Source: Vicinamibacterales bacterium (lineage in GTDB: Bacteria; Acidobacteriota; Vicinamibacteria; Vicinamibacterales; UBA2999). From it: a stretch of DNA of 64,000 bases. A program made the position numbers and the translations under genes. Below, piece after piece: positions 53,788 to 60,545 of this stretch (position 1 is its first letter; each line of letters begins with the position of its first letter). The notes under the pieces were generated by a model. It was given only the letters and a program-made list of their open reading frames with translations. It made no database searches and was not told the DNA's origin. The stretch covers positions 71,949 through 135,948 of the forward strand of contig JAUXWO010000064.1 of the NCBI GenBank assembly GCA_030680175.1. The letters run 5' to 3'.

Positions 53788-55611
53788 ATGCCAGCCCAGC
53801 CAGACGAGACCATGGACCCCGCGGGTGACTCCCCGTGCGCCGAGGCCGCCACCGAGCGCGCGGCGCTGACCGGCGCCATCGAGCGGCGCGAGGCGCTGCT
53901 GCGCGGCGTGGCGGGCGCCGCCGAGGCGCTCCTCACCTCCGGTGACGATCTCGCGGTCGCGATCCCGCGCGCCCTCGCGTCGCTTGGCGAGGCCTCCGCC
54001 GCCGATCGCGTGAGCGTGTACCGGCGGCTGCCGGCCGCCACGCGCGACGGCGATCAGGTGGTGTGCCCGTACGAGTGGACGCAGCCCGGCGTCCTGCGGC
54101 ATTCGGAGCTGCCGGGCCGCTTCCCGGTGTCCTGCTGTTCGTTCGGCGAGGCGTGGCGCGATCGGCTGCAGGAGGGGCAGGCCCTGCAGGCGCACACGGC
54201 GCAGATGCCCGACGCGCTGCGCGCCCTCAAGGAGCGCGACGGCACGCGCTCCGTCCTCGTCGTCCCCATCGTCGTGCGCGGCGAGTTCTGGGGCGTGTTG
54301 AGCTTCGACAACTGCCATACGGATCGCGAGTGGAGCCCCGCCACGGTCTCGACGATCGAGACGGCGGCGTCGCTGCTCGCCGGCGCCGTGGAGCGCGACA
54401 CGGCGGTGGCGGCGCGCCTCGAGGCGGAGCGCCGGCGCATCATGGAGCTGGCGGCGGCCAACGACGTGCTGGCGCGCACGTCCACGCACCTGGCGAGCCA
54501 GCCGGATCTGTCGTCCTTCCTCTCACAGCTCGTGCTCGAGACGACGCGCCAGCTCGGCGCGGCGAGCGGCTACGTCGTGCTCATCGACGACAACGGCGAG
54601 CAGCGGCGGGCCATTTCCATCGAGGACGGCGTGATCAGCGAGCCCCGGCTCGTCGCGGCCACGGACGTCGCCGAAGCGCGGGCGCTCGAGCTGCTGCGCG
54701 CGAGCCGCCAGCCGCGGCAGTTCGACATCGAGCGTGACCTGGACGTGTTTTGTCCCGAGGCGCGCGCGCACTTCCGCCAGCGCGGCGTGCGCGTGCTGGT
54801 GGCGACGGCCCTCCAGGCCGGCGACCGCCTCGTGGGCTTCCTCGGCCTCGCCTTCCGCGAGCACACCACGCTCGACGCCATCAGCCAGCAGCTGCTGCGC
54901 GCGCTGGCGCAGCAGGCGGCGCTGGCCATCCAGCTGACGCGGCTCGCCCACGAGGCACAGGAGCAGGCACGGCAGGCGGCCGTGCTCGAGGAGCGCAATC
55001 GCCTGGCGCGCGAGATCCACGACACGATGGCGCAGGGCTTTGCCGCGATCGCCATGCAGCTGCAGGGCGTGCGCCGGCACGGCGGGCCGCTGCCGCAGGC
55101 GGTGGCCGCGAGCCTCGACCAGGTGATGGAGCTGGCGCGCGAGAATCTGCTCGAGGCGCGGCGATCGGTGCTGGCGCTGCGCCCGCGCGTGCTCGACGGC
55201 GCCGGGCTGCCGGATGCGCTCTCGCGGCTCGTCCACGGCGTGCAGCGCGGGGCGTCGATCCCGCTCGCGCTCGACGTGACCGGCACACCGGCCGCACCCG
55301 AGGCGGTGGAGCACGAGGTGGTGCGCATCGCGCAGGAGGCGCTCACCAACGCGGTGCGGCACGCCGGGGCCTCGCGCATCTGGGTGCGCCTGGCGGCCGG
55401 CGACCGCGGCCTGCGGCTCATCGTCGGTGACGATGGGCGCGGGTTCGCGCACGACGGCGTCACGCATGGCGATGGCCTGCGCGGCATGCAGGAGCGCGCG
55501 GAGCGCATCGGTGCGTCGTTCACGATCGTCACGGAGCCGGGCGGCGGCACCGAGTTGATCCTGGCATGGGCGGACGAGGGCGCGGGCGCGGGGTATCCGC
55601 GCGCCGTATGA
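53788..55611 (+). CDS. Sensor histidine kinase, two GAF domains plus HisKA_3 and HATPase
   Basis: EERNRLAREIHDTMAQGF H-box; C-terminal DDGRGF…GLRGMQERAERIGASF. Confidence 0.85.
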   Translation: MPAQPDETMDPAGDSPCAEAATERAALTGAIERREALLRGVAGAAEALLTSGDDLAVAIPRALASLGEASAADRVSVYRRLPAATRDGDQVVCPYEWTQPGVLRHSELPGRFPVSCCSFGEAWRDRLQEGQALQAHTAQMPDALRALKERDGTRSVLVVPIVVRGEFWGVLSFDNCHTDREWSPATVSTIETAASLLAGAVERDTAVAARLEAERRRIMELAAANDVLARTSTHLASQPDLSSFLSQLVLETTRQLGAASGYVVLIDDNGEQRRAISIEDGVISEPRLVAATDVAEARALELLRASRQPRQFDIERDLDVFCPEARAHFRQRGVRVLVATALQAGDRLVGFLGLAFREHTTLDAISQQLLRALAQQAALAIQLTRLAHEAQEQARQAAVLEERNRLAREIHDTMAQGFAAIAMQLQGVRRHGGPLPQAVAASLDQVMELARENLLEARRSVLALRPRVLDGAGLPDALSRLVHGVQRGASIPLALDVTGTPAAPEAVEHEVVRIAQEALTNAVRHAGASRIWVRLAAGDRGLRLIVGDDGRGFAHDGVTHGDGLRGMQERAERIGASFTIVTEPGGGTELILAWADEGAGAGYPRAV

Positions 55612-56255
55612 ACCGCACCCGCGCCACGCGCCCGCCGGTCCGGGCGCGCGTCCTGATCGCCGACGACCACGCGCTGATGCGCAACGGCGTGGCGAACCTG
55701 CTGAACCAGGAAGCCGACCTCGAGGTGGTGGCGGAAGCGCCGGACGGCCTGAGCGCCGTCGCGCTCTACGAGACCCATCGCCCGGACGTGGCGCTCATCG
55801 ACCTCCGCATGCCGCGGCTCGAAGGCGTCGAGGTCGTGCGGCAGATCCGCGCCGCGCATCCCGAGGCGCGGCTCATCATCCTGACGACCTACGATACGGA
55901 CGAGGACATCGACCGCGCGCTGAAGGCGGGCGCGCAGGCCTACCTGCTGAAGGACGTGTCGGCGGACGGCCTGCTGGCGTGCATCCGCGACGTGCTGCGG
56001 GGCCAGACGCATGTGGCGCCCGCGGTGGCGGCGCGCCTGGCGGCGCGCGGCGCGCGTGTGCAGCTCACGCCGCGCGAGCTGGCCGTGCTGCGCGAACTGG
56101 CCGACGGCCGCGCCAACAAGGAGATCGCCTCGAGCCTCGGCATCAGCGAGGGCACGGTGAAGGTGCACCTCGCGCACCTGTTCGATAAACTGGGTGTCTC
56201 GAGCCGCACCGAAGCGATCGCCGTCGCCGTCCGCCGCGGCCTCGTCCGCCTGTAG
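55608..56255 (+). CDS. NarL/LuxR-family response regulator
   Basis: Trimmed to ATG 55608 (ATGA overlap with the kinase); VLIADDHALMR…DLRMP receiver; LTPRELAVLRELADGRANKEIA HTH. Confidence 0.9.
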   Translation: MNRTRATRPPVRARVLIADDHALMRNGVANLLNQEADLEVVAEAPDGLSAVALYETHRPDVALIDLRMPRLEGVEVVRQIRAAHPEARLIILTTYDTDEDIDRALKAGAQAYLLKDVSADGLLACIRDVLRGQTHVAPAVAARLAARGARVQLTPRELAVLRELADGRANKEIASSLGISEGTVKVHLAHLFDKLGVSSRTEAIAVAVRRGLVRL

Positions 56256-56311
56256 GCGTTCAGGCCGCGCGAACACGCCACCTCTTCCCCGCACAAGGAG
56301 TCACCTGATCA

Positions 56312-57367
56312 ATGAAAGACGCTGGAGCCACGACAGAAGCCGCCACGCCGAACACCTTCTTCGTGGAGGTGACGGGCGCGGGCCTCCCTGAAGTCGATGG
56401 CCTCTTCGTGCCGTCCACGGCCCCGCCCACGACATCTGAATCCGGCACGGTGTCGAGTCCCGGCTACTGGAACGGCAAGATGGCGTGGGACCGTGCCGAC
56501 GGCAGGGCGGCGAGAAGCCCGGCGATCTCCTATTCCAACAGCTACAAGTCCTGGAGAATCTCCCGCCTCGACGGGCATCTGGCGTACGACATCTCGTCCG
56601 AGGAGGCGATGCCCCCGACTGACCGGGAATGGCACGTCTACAAGAAGGGCGTTGCGCCGGCGCCGACGGTCGTGCTCCATCACTTCGACCCGAGACAGCC
56701 CTGCCCCGCGCCGAACGTCGTCTTCGTGCTCGGCGCGCCCGGCGCCGGCAAAGGCACCATGTGTGAGCTGGCCGAGTCCCAACTCGGCTGGACGCACCTC
56801 TCCACGGGAGACCTGCTCCGCGCCGAGCACCAGGCGGGAGGGCCGAACGCCGCCATCATCGACGAGTACCTGGCGGCGGGACAGCTGGTCCCCAACGACA
56901 TCACGGTGACCCTGCTGCGACAGGCGATGGAGCGCATCACCAGAACGACAGGCCGGAAGAACTTCCTCCTGGATGGCTTCCCGCGCTCCCTGTCCAACCT
57001 GGAGGCCTGGTACGAGATCTTCGGCCGGGAGGCGGAGCTCCCCGGCATGCTGTACTTCGAGTGCCCCTCCGCCGTCCTCGAGCAACGCATCCTGGGACGC
57101 GCAAAGTACTCCGGCAGGAGTGATGACAACGTCGAGAGCATGAAGCTGAGATTCGACACCTTCAAGGCTGAGACGCTGCCGACCGTGGAGCTGTTCAAGA
57201 GCCTGGGCAAATGTGTGGAGGTCGACACCAGCCAGGACCGTCAGGCCGTGTATGCCCTCGTGGCGGCCCACCTGGCCGAGCACACCGAGAGCACGTTCGC
57301 GGCCAGGCCACTCACCGAGCGCGCGGAAATGCTGCTCGGCCTGAGGCCGTACCCCAGGAAGGAATAG
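56312..57367 (+). CDS. Short-type adenylate-kinase-family enzyme closest to eukaryotic UMP-CMP kinase, with ~130-aa unknown N-terminal domain
   Basis: VVFVLGAPGAGKGTMCE…THLSTGDLLRAE…FLLDGFPRSLSNLEAW…SGRSDDNVESMKLRFDTF aligns by eye to human/yeast UMP-CMP kinase motifs; AAGGAG SD 10 nt upstream. Confidence 0.8.
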   Translation: MKDAGATTEAATPNTFFVEVTGAGLPEVDGLFVPSTAPPTTSESGTVSSPGYWNGKMAWDRADGRAARSPAISYSNSYKSWRISRLDGHLAYDISSEEAMPPTDREWHVYKKGVAPAPTVVLHHFDPRQPCPAPNVVFVLGAPGAGKGTMCELAESQLGWTHLSTGDLLRAEHQAGGPNAAIIDEYLAAGQLVPNDITVTLLRQAMERITRTTGRKNFLLDGFPRSLSNLEAWYEIFGREAELPGMLYFECPSAVLEQRILGRAKYSGRSDDNVESMKLRFDTFKAETLPTVELFKSLGKCVEVDTSQDRQAVYALVAAHLAEHTESTFAARPLTERAEMLLGLRPYPRKE

Positions 57368-57519
57368 GGGGATCTCGCACAGGACCTTCCGGCGACTCTG
57401 CCCTTGACGGAGGCGTAGCCGGGGCCTACACTCTCGCGGCAACCTCGTCGCCGTCCCCGTCGCGTTCGGCGTCCGCTGCGCGAGTGGCGTCGAGCCGGCA
57501 CTTCCCCCGGGAGGTTCCG

Positions 57520-58227
57520 ATGCCGCGCCCCTGCCGCCTGGTTCCCCGTCGTCACAGCGCCCGCCTGCTCATCGGCGTGTGCGTGCTCAGCCTTGCCGCC
57601 TGCTCCGCGGCCCCGCCGGAGGCCGCCGACGCCGGCGCCCCTGACGCGCCGGCCGTTGCCGCTGCCTCCGGGGCACCAGGGCCGGGCGAGCCCAGCCTCG
57701 AAGAGGTGCGGCGCGCCACCGAGCGGTTCCGCGACGTGAACGTCGCGCTCGCCGAAGGCTACGTGCGCGATCCGTTCGACGTGTGTGACACGGCTGAGAT
57801 GATGGGACGCCCCGGCGAACTCGGCGCCATGGGGATCCACTACGTGCGCATGGACCTGCTCGGCATCACGGGGCCCCCGAACCCGAAGGTGGACGGCACC
57901 GGCATCCACACGGACTTTCGCACGCCGTCGATCCTGATCTACGAGCCGCAGGCCGACGGCTCGCTGGAACTGGTCGCGGTCGAGAACCTCGCGTTCGCGG
58001 CCGCGTGGGAGGCGGCCGGCCACCCTGCCCCGCCCACGTTCCACGGGGTGCCCTACGACTACATGGCCGACGACCCGGCCACGCCGGCCGAGGAATCCCA
58101 CATGTTCGAGCCGCACTGGGATCGGCACGTGTGGCTCTACCGCGAGAACCCGGCAGGCACGTTCGCGCCGTTCAACCCGCGCGTGAGCTGCGAGCACCAC
58201 ACGGGCGCCGCGCACTGGCACGAGTGA
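57520..58227 (+). CDS. Lipoprotein, function unknown
   Basis: Trimmed to ATG 57520 (GGGAGG SD); lipobox LSLAAC; no family recognised. Confidence 0.6.
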   Translation: MPRPCRLVPRRHSARLLIGVCVLSLAACSAAPPEAADAGAPDAPAVAAASGAPGPGEPSLEEVRRATERFRDVNVALAEGYVRDPFDVCDTAEMMGRPGELGAMGIHYVRMDLLGITGPPNPKVDGTGIHTDFRTPSILIYEPQADGSLELVAVENLAFAAAWEAAGHPAPPTFHGVPYDYMADDPATPAEESHMFEPHWDRHVWLYRENPAGTFAPFNPRVSCEHHTGAAHWHE

Positions 58228-58270
58228 GTCGTGCGCTGCGATCAGTGGTATGATGTTTTGTCATACTCCA

Positions 58271-58513
58271 ATGCCCAAGACAAAAGTTGCCCTGACGATC
58301 GACGCCGATCTGCTCGAGCGTGTGGACCACCTCGTGGCCCGGCAGCGCTTTCGCAATCGCAGCCAGGCGATTGAGACGGCGCTCGCCGAGAAGCTGTCAC
58401 GACTGGCCCGCGTCCGCCTGGCCGAGGAGTGTGCCAAGCTCGACCCCGCGGAGGAACGGCTCCTGGCCGATGAAGGCCTCGCGGCCGCGGATGAATCATG
58501 GCCCGAATACTGA
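58271..58513 (+). CDS. mazE: RHH-type antitoxin paired with MazF
   Basis: MPKTKVALTIDADLLERVDHLVARQRFRNRSQAIETALAEKL; 16-nt overlap with mazF; TGgTATGAT extended -10 at 58246-58254. Confidence 0.7.
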   Translation: MPKTKVALTIDADLLERVDHLVARQRFRNRSQAIETALAEKLSRLARVRLAEECAKLDPAEERLLADEGLAAADESWPEY

Positions 58514-58833
58514 GGGGTGAGATCCGGTGGGCCGATCTCAATCCCGTCCGCGGTCACGAGCAGGCCGGACAACGCCCGGTACTGATTCTGAGCCACGACG
58601 TGTTCAACGAACGGTCCGGCACCGTGATCGCCGTCGCCCTGACCAGTCAGGAGCCGCGCGCGGGCTATCCGCTCACGCTCGCACTGACTGACGCCAGGCT
58701 CCCCAAGCCCTCCTGGGCGAAGATCAGCCAAATCCGCACGCTCTCGACCGAACGCCTCGGCAAGAGACTCGGTCGTGCCTCGGACGAGGAGCTGACCAGG
58801 GTGCTGGACGGCCTCATGGAGATCGTCGGCTAG
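58498..58833 (+). CDS. mazF: MazF/PemK-family endoribonuclease toxin
   Basis: RGEIRWADLNPVRGHEQAGQRPVLILSHDVFNERSGTVIAVALTSQ. Confidence 0.88.
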   Translation: MARILRGEIRWADLNPVRGHEQAGQRPVLILSHDVFNERSGTVIAVALTSQEPRAGYPLTLALTDARLPKPSWAKISQIRTLSTERLGKRLGRASDEELTRVLDGLMEIVG

Positions 58834-58860
58834 CCGGCTCGCCTTGAATCACCGTTAAGC

Positions 58861-59189
58861 CCGAGGTGGCCGGCACCACTTGCGACAGACGGAAGCCGGA
58901 TCGGCGACTGGTCGACCCGGATCGAGGGACGGCCGTACGTTCCGGAGGAGAACCCCAACGGCGACTTCCAGGCCGTCACGCCCGGGTACTTCGAGGCGAT
59001 GGGGCTCACCCTCGTCCGCGGCCGCTTCCTGAACGACGCCGATCATGAAGACGCGATGCCGGCGGTGGTCATCAACGACACCATGGCCGGGCGCTACTGG
59101 CCCGGCGAGGACGCCCTCGGCCGGCAGTCCTCGTCCCGGCGCGCCGGGCCGCCTCGATCGATCCGATCGTCACACTGAGACAGAGCTGA
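58861..59189 (+). pseudogene. Remnant of an ADOP/MacB-type permease (internal deletion plus frame change)
   Basis: One frame reads …IEGRPYVPEENPNGDFQAVTPGYFEAMGLTLVRGRFLNDADHEDAMPAVVINDTMAGRYWPGEDALGRQ (periplasmic domain). Another frame then reads ARRAASIDPIVTLRQS-stop, the family-typical extreme C-terminus. There is no start and no TM modules. Confidence 0.6.
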
Positions 59190-59214
59190 GGATCGCGGCA
59201 GGGCAACCGGCCGC

Positions 59215-59454
59215 TCATCGAGCGGCGCGTGATCGCCGGAGGGCCCCTCGCAGCAGGTACCAGGCCATCATCACGACCGCGCCAATCAGGATGCCGACCA
59301 GCCAGCGCAAGGGGCCGACGGCGCCGTTGGGGACGACGTCCGTCGAGACGACATCAGGGAACAGACGCGGTGTTCCCAGGACGTACACGAATGCCAGCAA
59401 CCCCGCACCAAGCATCACCCGGGAGAGCATCGCTGCAATTGCCGCATTGTTCAT
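59215..59454 (-). CDS. Small two-TM membrane protein
   Basis: 79 aa; downstream of and co-oriented with the cyclase gene. Confidence 0.4.
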   Translation of the reverse strand: MNNAAIAAMLSRVMLGAGLLAFVYVLGTPRLFPDVVSTDVVPNGAVGPLRWLVGILIGAVVMMAWYLLRGALRRSRAAR

Positions 59455-59525
59455 GAACGGCTCGTCTTCCTCGGGGTGGGGCTACCGGACTGCGGTGGCG
59501 CCGGGCTGCCGCCGGGAACGAATCG

Positions 59526-60422
59526 CTACGCGCCGGGCGCGCGGCGGGCCGACAGCTGCGTGCGGGTGCTGGCCACGCTGAAGAGTTCGTGCTCGCCGGG
59601 GAACCCGTCGAGCGCGTGGACGCCGGCCGACTCGAAGTGCAGGAGCGGCGCGAGCGCCGCCCGCGCGGCGGCGCTCACCACCGCGTCGCGCTCCAGGCGC
59701 GCCGCGACCTTCTCCATCCGGAACACGTAGATCACCTCGAGCCCCGAGATGTTGTTCGCCCCGCCCGCGCCGCCCGCCATCGTCGCGCGGCCGAAGTGCA
59801 GCACCAGGCGGAACGCCGGCGCCGCCTCCGCCTGCAGGCCCTGCAGCGTGCCGATCACCGGCGCAAGGCGCGCCGCCGTGTCGGGCTCGGCTTCCCAGTA
59901 CGCGAAGATCGCGTCGCCCAGGAACTTGTCCACCACGCCGCCCGCCGATTCGATCACCTCGCGCGTCCGCCGCAGCCACGTCCCGACCGTGCGCCCCAGC
60001 GCCTCGGGCGGCAGCGACTGCATGATCGTCGTGAAGCTCTTGATATCCAGCATCAACAGCCAGCACGGCCGCGACGACTGCACGACCACCGTGGCGGCAA
60101 ACTGCGGGGTGCCCAGGGCCAGGTCGGGCGCGTTGTCCTGACGGAACGTCAGGCGCGTGTCGCCGACGACGATGATGTCGCCGTCGATGAGGCGGGTCGG
60201 CATCGTGATGCGGCGCCCGTTGCGGATCGTGCCGTTCGTGCTGCCGAGATCGGCGATCCAGCACTCGGTGCCCTCGACCGAGTCCTGCAGGTGGACGAAG
60301 GCGTGCTGCCGCGAGACCTGGTCGGAATCAATCCGGATCGCCGCGCCCTGCGCGCGTCCAATCTGGCAGTTGGCGCCCACCTCGACCTCGCGGCCATCCG
60401 GGAGAATCAGCCAGGCCTTCAT
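59526..60422 (-). CDS. FHA domain fused to class III adenylate/guanylate cyclase domain
   Basis: Trimmed to ATG 60422; FHA IGRAQGAAIRIDSDQVSRQHAFV…GSTNGTIRNG; cyclase LLMLDIKSFTT…KFLGDAIFAYW. Confidence 0.8.
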   Translation of the reverse strand: MKAWLILPDGREVEVGANCQIGRAQGAAIRIDSDQVSRQHAFVHLQDSVEGTECWIADLGSTNGTIRNGRRITMPTRLIDGDIIVVGDTRLTFRQDNAPDLALGTPQFAATVVVQSSRPCWLLMLDIKSFTTIMQSLPPEALGRTVGTWLRRTREVIESAGGVVDKFLGDAIFAYWEAEPDTAARLAPVIGTLQGLQAEAAPAFRLVLHFGRATMAGGAGGANNISGLEVIYVFRMEKVAARLERDAVVSAAARAALAPLLHFESAGVHALDGFPGEHELFSVASTRTQLSARRAPGA

Positions 60423-60545
60423 CGGGGACCGACGGGGTTCATCTACGCATCCTGGGACGGCCGGCCGCGCCGATCGCGGCCCGCCCACGAGGGGGCCGTG
60501 GCGACCTTGTATCACGCCCCGGCCACCCCCGTCGAGATTCAGGCG

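Follow-up and report, generated by a model that had tools for sequence, protein, structure and literature searches.

A eukaryotic-type UMP-CMP kinase fused to an undescribed all-beta domain in a Vicinamibacterales bacterium: a probable algal gene spread among bacterial phyla

The fusion-kinase gene

The window analysed here is a stretch of 64,000 nucleotides (nt) of contig JAUXWO010000064.1 from a Vicinamibacterales bacterium of the phylum Acidobacteriota (NCBI GenBank assembly GCA_030680175.1). It carries a complete gene for a protein in which an N-terminal domain (N-domain), a nucleoside monophosphate (NMP) kinase domain and a C-terminal tail (C-tail) are joined, hereafter the fusion kinase (Table 1). 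As stated in the first-pass annotation of the window, which was made from the sequence alone, the gene is preceded by a Shine-Dalgarno sequence and begins 56 nt after a two-component system. The adjacent gene of that system encodes a response regulator of the NarL/LuxR type and itself follows that of a GAF-HisKA_3 histidine kinase. A promoter and terminator scan detected no promoter-like site upstream of the fusion-kinase gene and no terminator-like site; its one promoter-like match, which is sigma-70-like, lies downstream of the stop codon (57404-57432). No signal peptide was seen by eye, so the product should be cytoplasmic.

Table 1. Positions of the fusion-kinase gene, its parts and the surrounding islet in the window (aa, amino acids)
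Feature	Position	Strand	Basis
Complete open reading frame (ORF), 351 aa (P0001): N-domain, UMP-CMP-type kinase and C-tail	56312..57367	+	Reading frame open throughout
Shine-Dalgarno-like AAGGAG, 11 nt 5' of the ATG	56295..56300	+	Direct reading of the sequence
Orphan all-beta N-domain, aa 13-128, with highly conserved loop SESGTVSSxGYWNGKMAWDRADG	56348..56695	+	No family match; AlphaFold2 (AF2) model
Short conserved linker DPRQPCPAPN, from N-domain to beta-1 of the kinase	56687..56716	+	Family alignment A1
Short-LID NMP kinase domain, aa 133-322, eukaryotic UMP-CMP kinase type by its matches	56708..57277	+	Pfam ADK, TIGR01359, PDB, Foldseek
P-loop GAPGAGKGT, aa 141-149, followed by Met150	56732..56758	+	A1 and PDB alignments
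DGFPRSLSN motif, aa 221-229; R225 is the NMP-phosphate arginine	56972..57001	+	HMMER alignments to 1qf9, 1tev and 1z83; invariant in A1
Short LID RAKYSGRSDDN, aa 263-273, with R263, R269, D271 and D272; R280 follows	57098..57130	+	A1 and PDB alignments
C-tail, aa 323-351, with conserved PLTERAEMLLGLRPYP	57278..57364	+	Conserved in bacterial and algal copies
Genome-specific islet between the response-regulator gene and a universal-stress-protein gene	56259..60545		Comparison with the same-genus genome G001

Kinase domain

The first-pass annotation had assigned the C-terminal part of the protein to the eukaryotic UMP-CMP kinases or AK1-type short kinases on the strength of four motifs, all of which are present (NVVFVLGAPGAGKGTMC, THLSTGDLLR, FLLDGFPRSLSNLEAW and SGRSDDNVESMKLRFDTF). 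The domain matches Pfam ADK (PF00406) over aa 139-298 with 126.2 bits (E 1.6e-36; gathering cut-off 26.8), and its top NCBIfam model is the UMP-CMP kinase family TIGR01359, at 183.9 bits. UMP-CMP kinases also lead the matches in the PDB, namely Dictyostelium UmpK (1QF9), human CMPK1 (1TEV) and yeast Ura6 (1UKY), with E ~1e-43; adenylate kinase 1 (AK1; E ~1e-34) and bacterial short adenylate kinases (E ~1e-26) rank after them. The likeness to these eukaryotic enzymes, which are also represented by 2UKD (Dictyostelium) and 7E9V (human), runs at ~40% identity through the whole kinase domain. An AlphaFold model superposes on 2ukd, 1uke and 1uky with TMt 0.85-0.87 in Foldseek.

The P-loop GxPGxGKGT, the NMP-site arginines and the short LID R..GR.DDN, including N273, align with 1qf9, 1tev and 1uky. 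The short LID SGRSDDN, the P-loop, DGFPR with Asn four residues after its arginine, and the catalytic arginines are common to the window protein and the eukaryotic UMP-CMP kinases. In the family alignment A1, the catalytic set K147, R170, R225, R263, R269, D271, D272 and R280 is invariant, as are N273 of the LID and G141, P143, G144, G146, K147, G148 and T149 of the P-loop together with M150. Residue N229 aligns with Asn97 of Dictyostelium UmpK and its human equivalent, where AK1 has Gln. We take this position, four after the DGFPR arginine, to be the base-reading site, with Asn in UMP-CMP kinases and Gln in adenylate kinases. The window protein differs from the eukaryotic UMP-CMP kinases in having an extra N-domain of 130 aa, a C-tail of 29 aa and Met for Gln after the P-loop. 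It also scores below the TIGR01359 cut-off, and its hosts already have PyrH and Cmk.

Models of the other NMP kinases fit less well. AK1 (1Z83, 3ADK; TIGR01360) has the same short-LID architecture and fold, but its model gives 137.1 bits against a curated cut-off of 284.1, and AK1 has Gln in place of Asn229 and no N-domain. The strongest bacterial adenylate kinase (Adk) model among TIGR01351 and the NF0013xx / NF0111xx equivalogs reaches 131.1 bits against a cut-off of 168, and several bacterial short-Adk models of NCBIfam match at 98-130 bits. Bacterial Adk shares the NMP-kinase fold. The first-pass annotation had also held that the kinase aligns with neither bacterial Cmk nor long-LID Adk, and this is borne out: Cmk profiles (TIGR00017 / PF02224) match the P-loop only (E 0.016-0.27), and long-form Adk models align in two pieces only, around the missing LID. 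The fusion kinase has no LID insertion, whereas the genome's own Adk has a long LID with Cys4. In bacteria the corresponding pyrimidine reactions are carried out by Cmk (TIGR00017) and PyrH (TIGR02075), the latter of an unrelated fold family.

Judged by these alignments, the kinase domain belongs to the eukaryotic type of UMP-CMP kinase; it is neither a bacterial Cmk or PyrH nor a long-LID Adk. The P-loop with K147 would bind ATP-Mg; R170 and R225, together with R263, R269, R280, D271 and D272 of the LID, would close over the NMP and the transferred phosphate, and N229 would hold the position that reads the pyrimidine base. The protein is probably an active ATP:UMP/CMP kinase, possibly also accepting dCMP, and the gene product would be a cytoplasmic phosphotransferase of the eukaryotic short-LID class.

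N-domain and C-tail

The first-pass annotation recognised nothing in the N-terminal 130 aa, and this part of the protein (residues 1-132) matches no family in Pfam, NCBIfam, PHROGs or PADLOC and no sequence in the PDB. An AF2 model of the N-domain, built from a more diverse alignment (A2), is all-beta with 7 strands (pLDDT 88.9, pTM 0.81). Foldseek found no fold counterpart of this model in the PDB (best E 0.4, TM <=0.32). In BFVD it returned a single weak match, the 267-aa viral protein A0A516MNE9 (E 3e-3, TMq 0.51, 19% identity), which is the sole structural match of the N-domain with high Foldseek probability.

The N-domain is the most conserved part of the protein, with a median identity of 84.5% and dN/dS <=0.05; median identity is 78% for the kinase and 73% for the tail. 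That the domain is more conserved than the enzyme attached to it, and under stronger purifying selection, points to an important function of the N-domain. Searched alone against 1.84 billion representative sequences, it gave 77 matches only, most of them fragments of the same family and some eukaryotic-looking. On the bacterial metagenome contig L096 (2358-3326), an N-domain 82% identical to that of the window stands behind a class-I SAM methyltransferase, and no kinase follows. All other relatives outside the kinase fusion come from eukaryotic-looking sequences: a divergent N-domain lies within the 807-aa protein P0257 (an ENA contig), and the MMETSP transcript P0301 has four still more divergent repeats, which are without the SESGT..GYWNGK loop. 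Some eukaryotic versions of the fusion (P0335, P0338, P0345) have two tandem N-domains before the kinase. The methyltransferase architecture suggests that the N-domain is a portable module.

In family alignment A1 the N-domain, the kinase, reached through a short linker DPRxPCPxPN, and the C-tail PLTERAEMLLGLRPYP are the three conserved parts. In some eukaryotic copies linkers of 17 to ~70 aa replace DPRxPCPxPN. The C-tail is missing from canonical UMP-CMP kinases and conserved in both the bacterial copies and the algal ones, which read PLTERSECLLGLRPWP or PLTEKSEMMLGLRPWP. The kinase is permanently joined to an all-beta domain of ~115 aa, whose family is undescribed, and to a conserved helix-plus-basic tail at the C-terminus. 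Most likely the N-domain is a non-catalytic binding, regulatory or targeting module, and it may, together with the tail, add binding, regulation or localisation to the enzyme.

Distribution in bacteria

A search of 5.8 billion proteins gave over 6,500 matches, the best 120 of which are full-length (344-406 aa, most of them 345-356) and 77-84% identical to the window protein. Full-length bacterial homologues, 73-98% identical, occur in more than 400 species, and at least 409 carriers turned up when one genome per species was scanned. These are scattered species in at least seven phyla. They include Planctomycetota (Pirellulaceae, Planctomycetaceae, Gemmataceae and a Phycisphaera-labelled metagenome-assembled genome, MAG), Pseudomonadota (Halomonas, Marinobacter, Cellvibrionaceae, Rhodocyclaceae and Burkholderiales), Verrucomicrobiota, Myxococcota or 'Deltaproteobacteria', Acidobacteriota and Hydrogenedentota. 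Some homologues lie on complete chromosomes, for example in Novipirellula sp. SH528 and Stieleria magnilauensis. We found no description of the fusion in full-text literature searches.

The gene is accessory and its distribution patchy. It was found in none of 60 relatives of the window genome from the same genus, family and order (1/61 counting the window genome itself), in 17 of the 201 genomes examined from the family of Novipirellula sp. SH528 and in 3 of 201 from that of Halomonas campaniensis; the highest prevalence in any bacterial family tested was 8.5% of genomes. The bacterial copies are old rather than recent acquisitions: the GC content of the gene tracks that of the host (0.465 to 0.66 where the flanks have 0.33 to 0.715) and synonymous differences are saturated (median pS 0.73; pN 0.12; dN/dS <=0.07).

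For the 80 best matches of the carrier scan, all 75-82% identical to the window protein, the loci were compared. All-against-all clustering of their ORFs revealed no operon partner, and the only neighbours to recur were sulfatase paralogues, which are background in Planctomycetota and Verrucomicrobiota. Beyond close relatives, no flanking DNA such as attC-like sites or inverted repeats is shared among these loci. A viral vector was considered and rejected, since no relative was found in IMG/VR and the PHROG matches were confined to weak ones in the P-loop and kinase.

The window genome has its own canonical long-LID Zn-type Adk, Cmk (contig C46) and PyrH, all encoded separately, and the 17 other carriers tested all keep cmk and pyrH. 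Since no carrier tested lacks either gene, the idea that the fusion kinase replaces cmk or pyrH was rejected. In its bacterial hosts the fusion would supplement the native Adk, Cmk and PyrH rather than replace them.

Four kinase-only proteins of ~200 aa (P0200, P0210, P0225 and P0228), 77-80% identical to the window kinase domain, are labelled 'UNVERIFIED_CONTAM ... [Idotea baltica]'. They are from bacterial contigs in an isopod assembly, and their N-domain is either truly missing or lost to a miscalled start.

Algal orthologues

A nuclear gene of the same three parts, with spliceosomal introns, is found in Triparma and on other marine eukaryotic contigs. Contig L081 (52% GC) has a complete copy with a GT-AG intron at 1269-1456 and an encoded C-tail. 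Contig L084 (38% GC) has another, also with the C-tail, in which a GT-AG intron of ~140 nt begins at 1433, elsewhere in the gene than the intron of L081. For this second intron the acceptor placed by script (1572) leaves one extra residue, and by eye one lying 3 nt further downstream agrees better with the homologues. An ankyrin-repeat gene adjoins the fusion gene on L084.

A search with the spliced L081 protein recovered orthologues in Triparma strigata (GMH64433.1), T. verrucosa, T. laevis and T. eleuthera (transcript from MMETSP1320), all four of which belong to the Bolidophyceae/Parmales. In T. strigata the gene lies on a 59-kb contig among eukaryote-type neighbours and has a 66-nt intron inside the N-domain loop. 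Its product is 61% identical to the window protein and collinear with it over 338 aa, with a single 3-aa gap. The Triparma orthologues have the identical three-part architecture, including the C-tail. The algal genes differ from the bacterial ones in being nuclear, with introns at lineage-specific positions and, in some, linkers of 17-70 aa or tandem N-domains; the kinase domains of the algal copies pass the TIGR01359 cut-off, which that of the window protein does not.

Other protists have triple tandem UMP-CMP kinases without the N-domain (P0337, P0339, P0340, P0343 and P0357, one of them from Leptophrys vorax).

Phylogeny and direction of transfer

Homologue searches with the kinase domain only were swamped by fragments of the same family and gave no outgroups, which were instead drawn from the PDB alignments and the eukaryotic tandem kinases. 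A maximum-likelihood (ML) tree of the kinase domain was computed from 110 rows under LG+C20. In it, the fusion kinases form a clade (support 100/99) whose sister group is the eukaryotic triple-tandem UMP-CMP kinases (94/69), and both together stand among the UMP-CMP kinases of Dictyostelium, yeast, human and Leptophrys. All 81 bacterial sequences fall into one clade (100/100; stem length 0.64), which joins the Triparma group at 98/98. A full-length tree of 68 rows and 334 columns likewise unites the bacteria (100/100) as sister to the Triparma group (99/97), nests them among other eukaryotic fusions (97/87) and joins the fusion clade to the eukaryotic tandem UMP-CMP kinases (100/99). Phyla are intermixed within the bacterial clade, where the window copy pairs with one from an Acidobacteriota MAG (95/92).

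Further indications of polarity point the same way. Scores against TIGR01359 fall from 282 bits in Dictyostelium to 210-213 in Triparma and 184-188 in the bacteria. It is eukaryotic-looking sequences that supply the divergent N-domain paralogues and the variety of architectures, and no tested bacterial family has the gene at high prevalence.

The first-pass annotation had proposed the gene as a candidate for inter-domain transfer. This is upheld by a bacterial clade that branches inside eukaryotic sequences and by the intron-bearing nuclear orthologues of algae. The proposal needs refining in that the whole three-part gene seems to have moved, not the kinase alone, in an old event followed by spread among bacteria. 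The three-part gene would have arisen in eukaryotes, in stramenopile algae such as Bolidophyceae, and entered bacteria once, long ago. Travelling as a single gene, it may then have reached Planctomycetota, Verrucomicrobiota, Pseudomonadota, Acidobacteriota and further phyla. Most probably the whole fusion was transferred once from a stramenopile alga to bacteria. The immediate donor to the window genome was most likely another bacterium, the nearest copy being that of the Acidobacteriota MAG.

Islet and codon usage in the window genome

Genome G001, from the same genus, has ispG and the genes for the histidine kinase, response regulator and universal stress protein conserved at 79-84% nt identity. 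Between the latter two it has one unrelated gene of 464 aa. Because G001 conserves both flanks but not the 4.3 kb between them, the fusion gene lies in a genome-specific islet, with which, or into which, it may have arrived. Besides the fusion kinase, the islet holds a 234-aa lipoprotein-like ORF, a ribbon-helix-helix (RHH)-MazF toxin-antitoxin pair and an FHA-domain protein, as identified with Pfam.

The 234-aa ORF (57523-58227) lies directly downstream of the kinase and is preceded by the promoter-like match; it has a lipoprotein-like N-terminus (LSLAACS) and no Pfam match. The toxin-antitoxin pair (58250-58833) consists of an RHH (CopG-type) antitoxin and a PemK/MazF toxin whose genes overlap by 16 nt, and it has the lowest index of the neighbourhood on a measure like the codon adaptation index (CAI), at about the 6th percentile. 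The FHA protein (59526-60515, minus strand; 329 aa) has its FHA domain at the N-terminus and no DNA-level counterpart at the corresponding position of G001; Pfam assigned no match in its C-terminal half. Two proteins from the 90%-identity clusters of the window response regulator and of MazF (window 55608-58833), the cluster members P0473 and P0477, are each recorded on a Logan contig 4,274 nt long. Should the two be a single contig, another sample has an islet-like arrangement.

The first-pass annotation had described the codon usage of the gene as different from that of its neighbours, with lower third-position GC (GC3). The difference holds for AGA and AGG (AGR): together they encode 10 of the 23 arginines, whereas the genome median is 3% of Arg codons and just 0.07% of 2,976 ORFs reach as high a share. 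It also holds for the CAI-like index, at the 17th percentile where the flanking ispG, histidine kinase and response regulator stand at the 85th-98th. It does not hold for GC3, which at 0.869 (22nd genome percentile) is unremarkable. In a genome of 4.98 Mb and 70.1% GC, the gene has 66.1% GC, which is the 5th percentile and stems mainly from codon positions 1 and 2. Since the median AGR share across homologues is 37%, the AGR share of the window copy can be read as a retained family trait. What betrays a foreign origin is solely the AGR usage and a modestly lowered CAI-like index, the overall GC3 being nearly host-like.

Weighing the explanations

The explanation that we consider best overall, and judge to be probable, is a fusion of eukaryotic-type UMP/CMP kinase of algal origin that entered bacteria once and spread among phyla. 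Several points weigh against it. The fusion kinase stays below the curated cut-off of TIGR01359 (183.9 vs 207.6 bits), and it has Met150 after the P-loop (GKGT-M-C; 56759-56761) where NMP kinases normally have Gln; this Met is family-wide, algal copies included, with Gln kept in one eukaryotic lineage (P0338, P0345). Specificity for pyrimidines is suggested by alignment and family knowledge. The N-domain has neither a fold match nor a conserved genomic partner that would assign it a role. Sampling of eukaryotes covers what the homologue searches returned. In approximately unbiased (AU) tests, a tree with the eukaryotic fusions monophyletic is not rejected (p 0.46 for the kinase domain, p 0.22 for the full length), so the nested position of the bacteria rests on bootstrap and SH-aLRT (Shimodaira-Hasegawa-like approximate likelihood-ratio test) support and on the indirect polarity arguments. 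The direction of transfer from algae to bacteria is thus the one to which the trees and these arguments point.

The AU tests, which allow all eukaryotic fusions to form one clade beside the bacterial clade, and the far greater number of bacterial copies in databases would suit a fusion that arose in bacteria, for example in Planctomycetota, and passed to stramenopile algae, acquiring its introns and linkers there. We regard this direction as quite unlikely, as the fusion clade lies inside the eukaryotic UMP-CMP kinases with eukaryotic tandem kinases as sister (94/69; 100/99), and the eukaryotic fusions are paraphyletic to the bacteria in both ML trees (98/98; 99/97). The bacterial kinase domains are moreover the most derived with respect to the TIGR01359 profile, the divergent N-domain paralogues and architectures (tandem copies, P0257, P0301) are eukaryotic-looking, the bacterial exception L096 being a near-identical N-domain, and no tested bacterial family exceeds 8.5% prevalence. 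That the protein is an ordinary bacterial adenylate kinase of the short type, inherited vertically and extended in this lineage, is very improbable. Such a reading could account for the bacterial short-Adk models that match at 98-130 bits, but a canonical long-LID adk is already present in the genome, eukaryotic UMP-CMP kinases match best, there are intron-bearing algal orthologues, and the AGR usage lies in the top 0.07% of the genome; it is contradicted outright by both trees and by the absence of the gene from all 60 relatives in the genus, family and order of the window genome. The chance that eukaryotic DNA was mis-assembled or misbinned into a bacterial contig is next to negligible. Apart from the eukaryote-like sequence itself nothing speaks for such an artefact; the gene has no introns, a Shine-Dalgarno-like sequence and a GC3 of 0.87, and the reading is contradicted by its place inside a 144-kb contig between bacterial genes and by the homologues on complete chromosomes (Novipirellula sp. 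SH528, Stieleria magnilauensis).

The remaining alternative concerns what the protein does. The kinase fold could have been repurposed for another substrate or as a sensor or effector, for instance in antiviral defence acting on the nucleotide pool, with the N-domain as the sensor. All the NMP-binding and catalytic residues of UMP-CMP kinases are kept, defence-type neighbours do not recur among the 80 loci, and the algal genes resemble ordinary nuclear genes. No match was found in PADLOC and no relative in IMG/VR, and PHROGs gave weak P-loop or kinase matches only (E 1e-4 or weaker), none of them on the N-domain. Repurposing would, on the other hand, account for a patchy, accessory spread under very strong sequence constraint, and is in keeping with the variable islet in which the window gene stands beside a MazEF pair, with the Met in place of the usual Gln after the P-loop and with the weak structural match of the N-domain to a viral protein (E 3e-3, TMq 0.51). 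On balance, we consider it unlikely.

Implications

The current annotation of these proteins as 'adenylate kinase' or 'nucleoside monophosphate kinase' masks their likely specificity for pyrimidines and their extra domain. The fusion also brings to light a domain family not described before, whose fold is modelled with confidence and for which Pfam and the PDB offer no counterpart. We hold it as a tentative and rather unlikely possibility that the N-domain is a new fold that binds a specific ligand or partner and so makes a housekeeping-type UMP/CMP kinase a conditionally valuable device. If true, the device could serve in the control of pyrimidine pools, or in dealing with unusual pyrimidine nucleotides during interactions with viruses or algae, and the reuse of the N-domain behind a methyltransferase and in eukaryotic tandem copies would mark it as a portable module for substrate recruitment or sensing.

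Well-documented gene transfers from eukaryotes to bacteria are rare, and subsequent spread across phyla at ~80% protein identity is rarer still. The trail left by the fusion kinase is unusually clear, with intron-bearing orthologues in algae, a single bacterial clade, saturated synonymous sites and an empty site in a sister genome.

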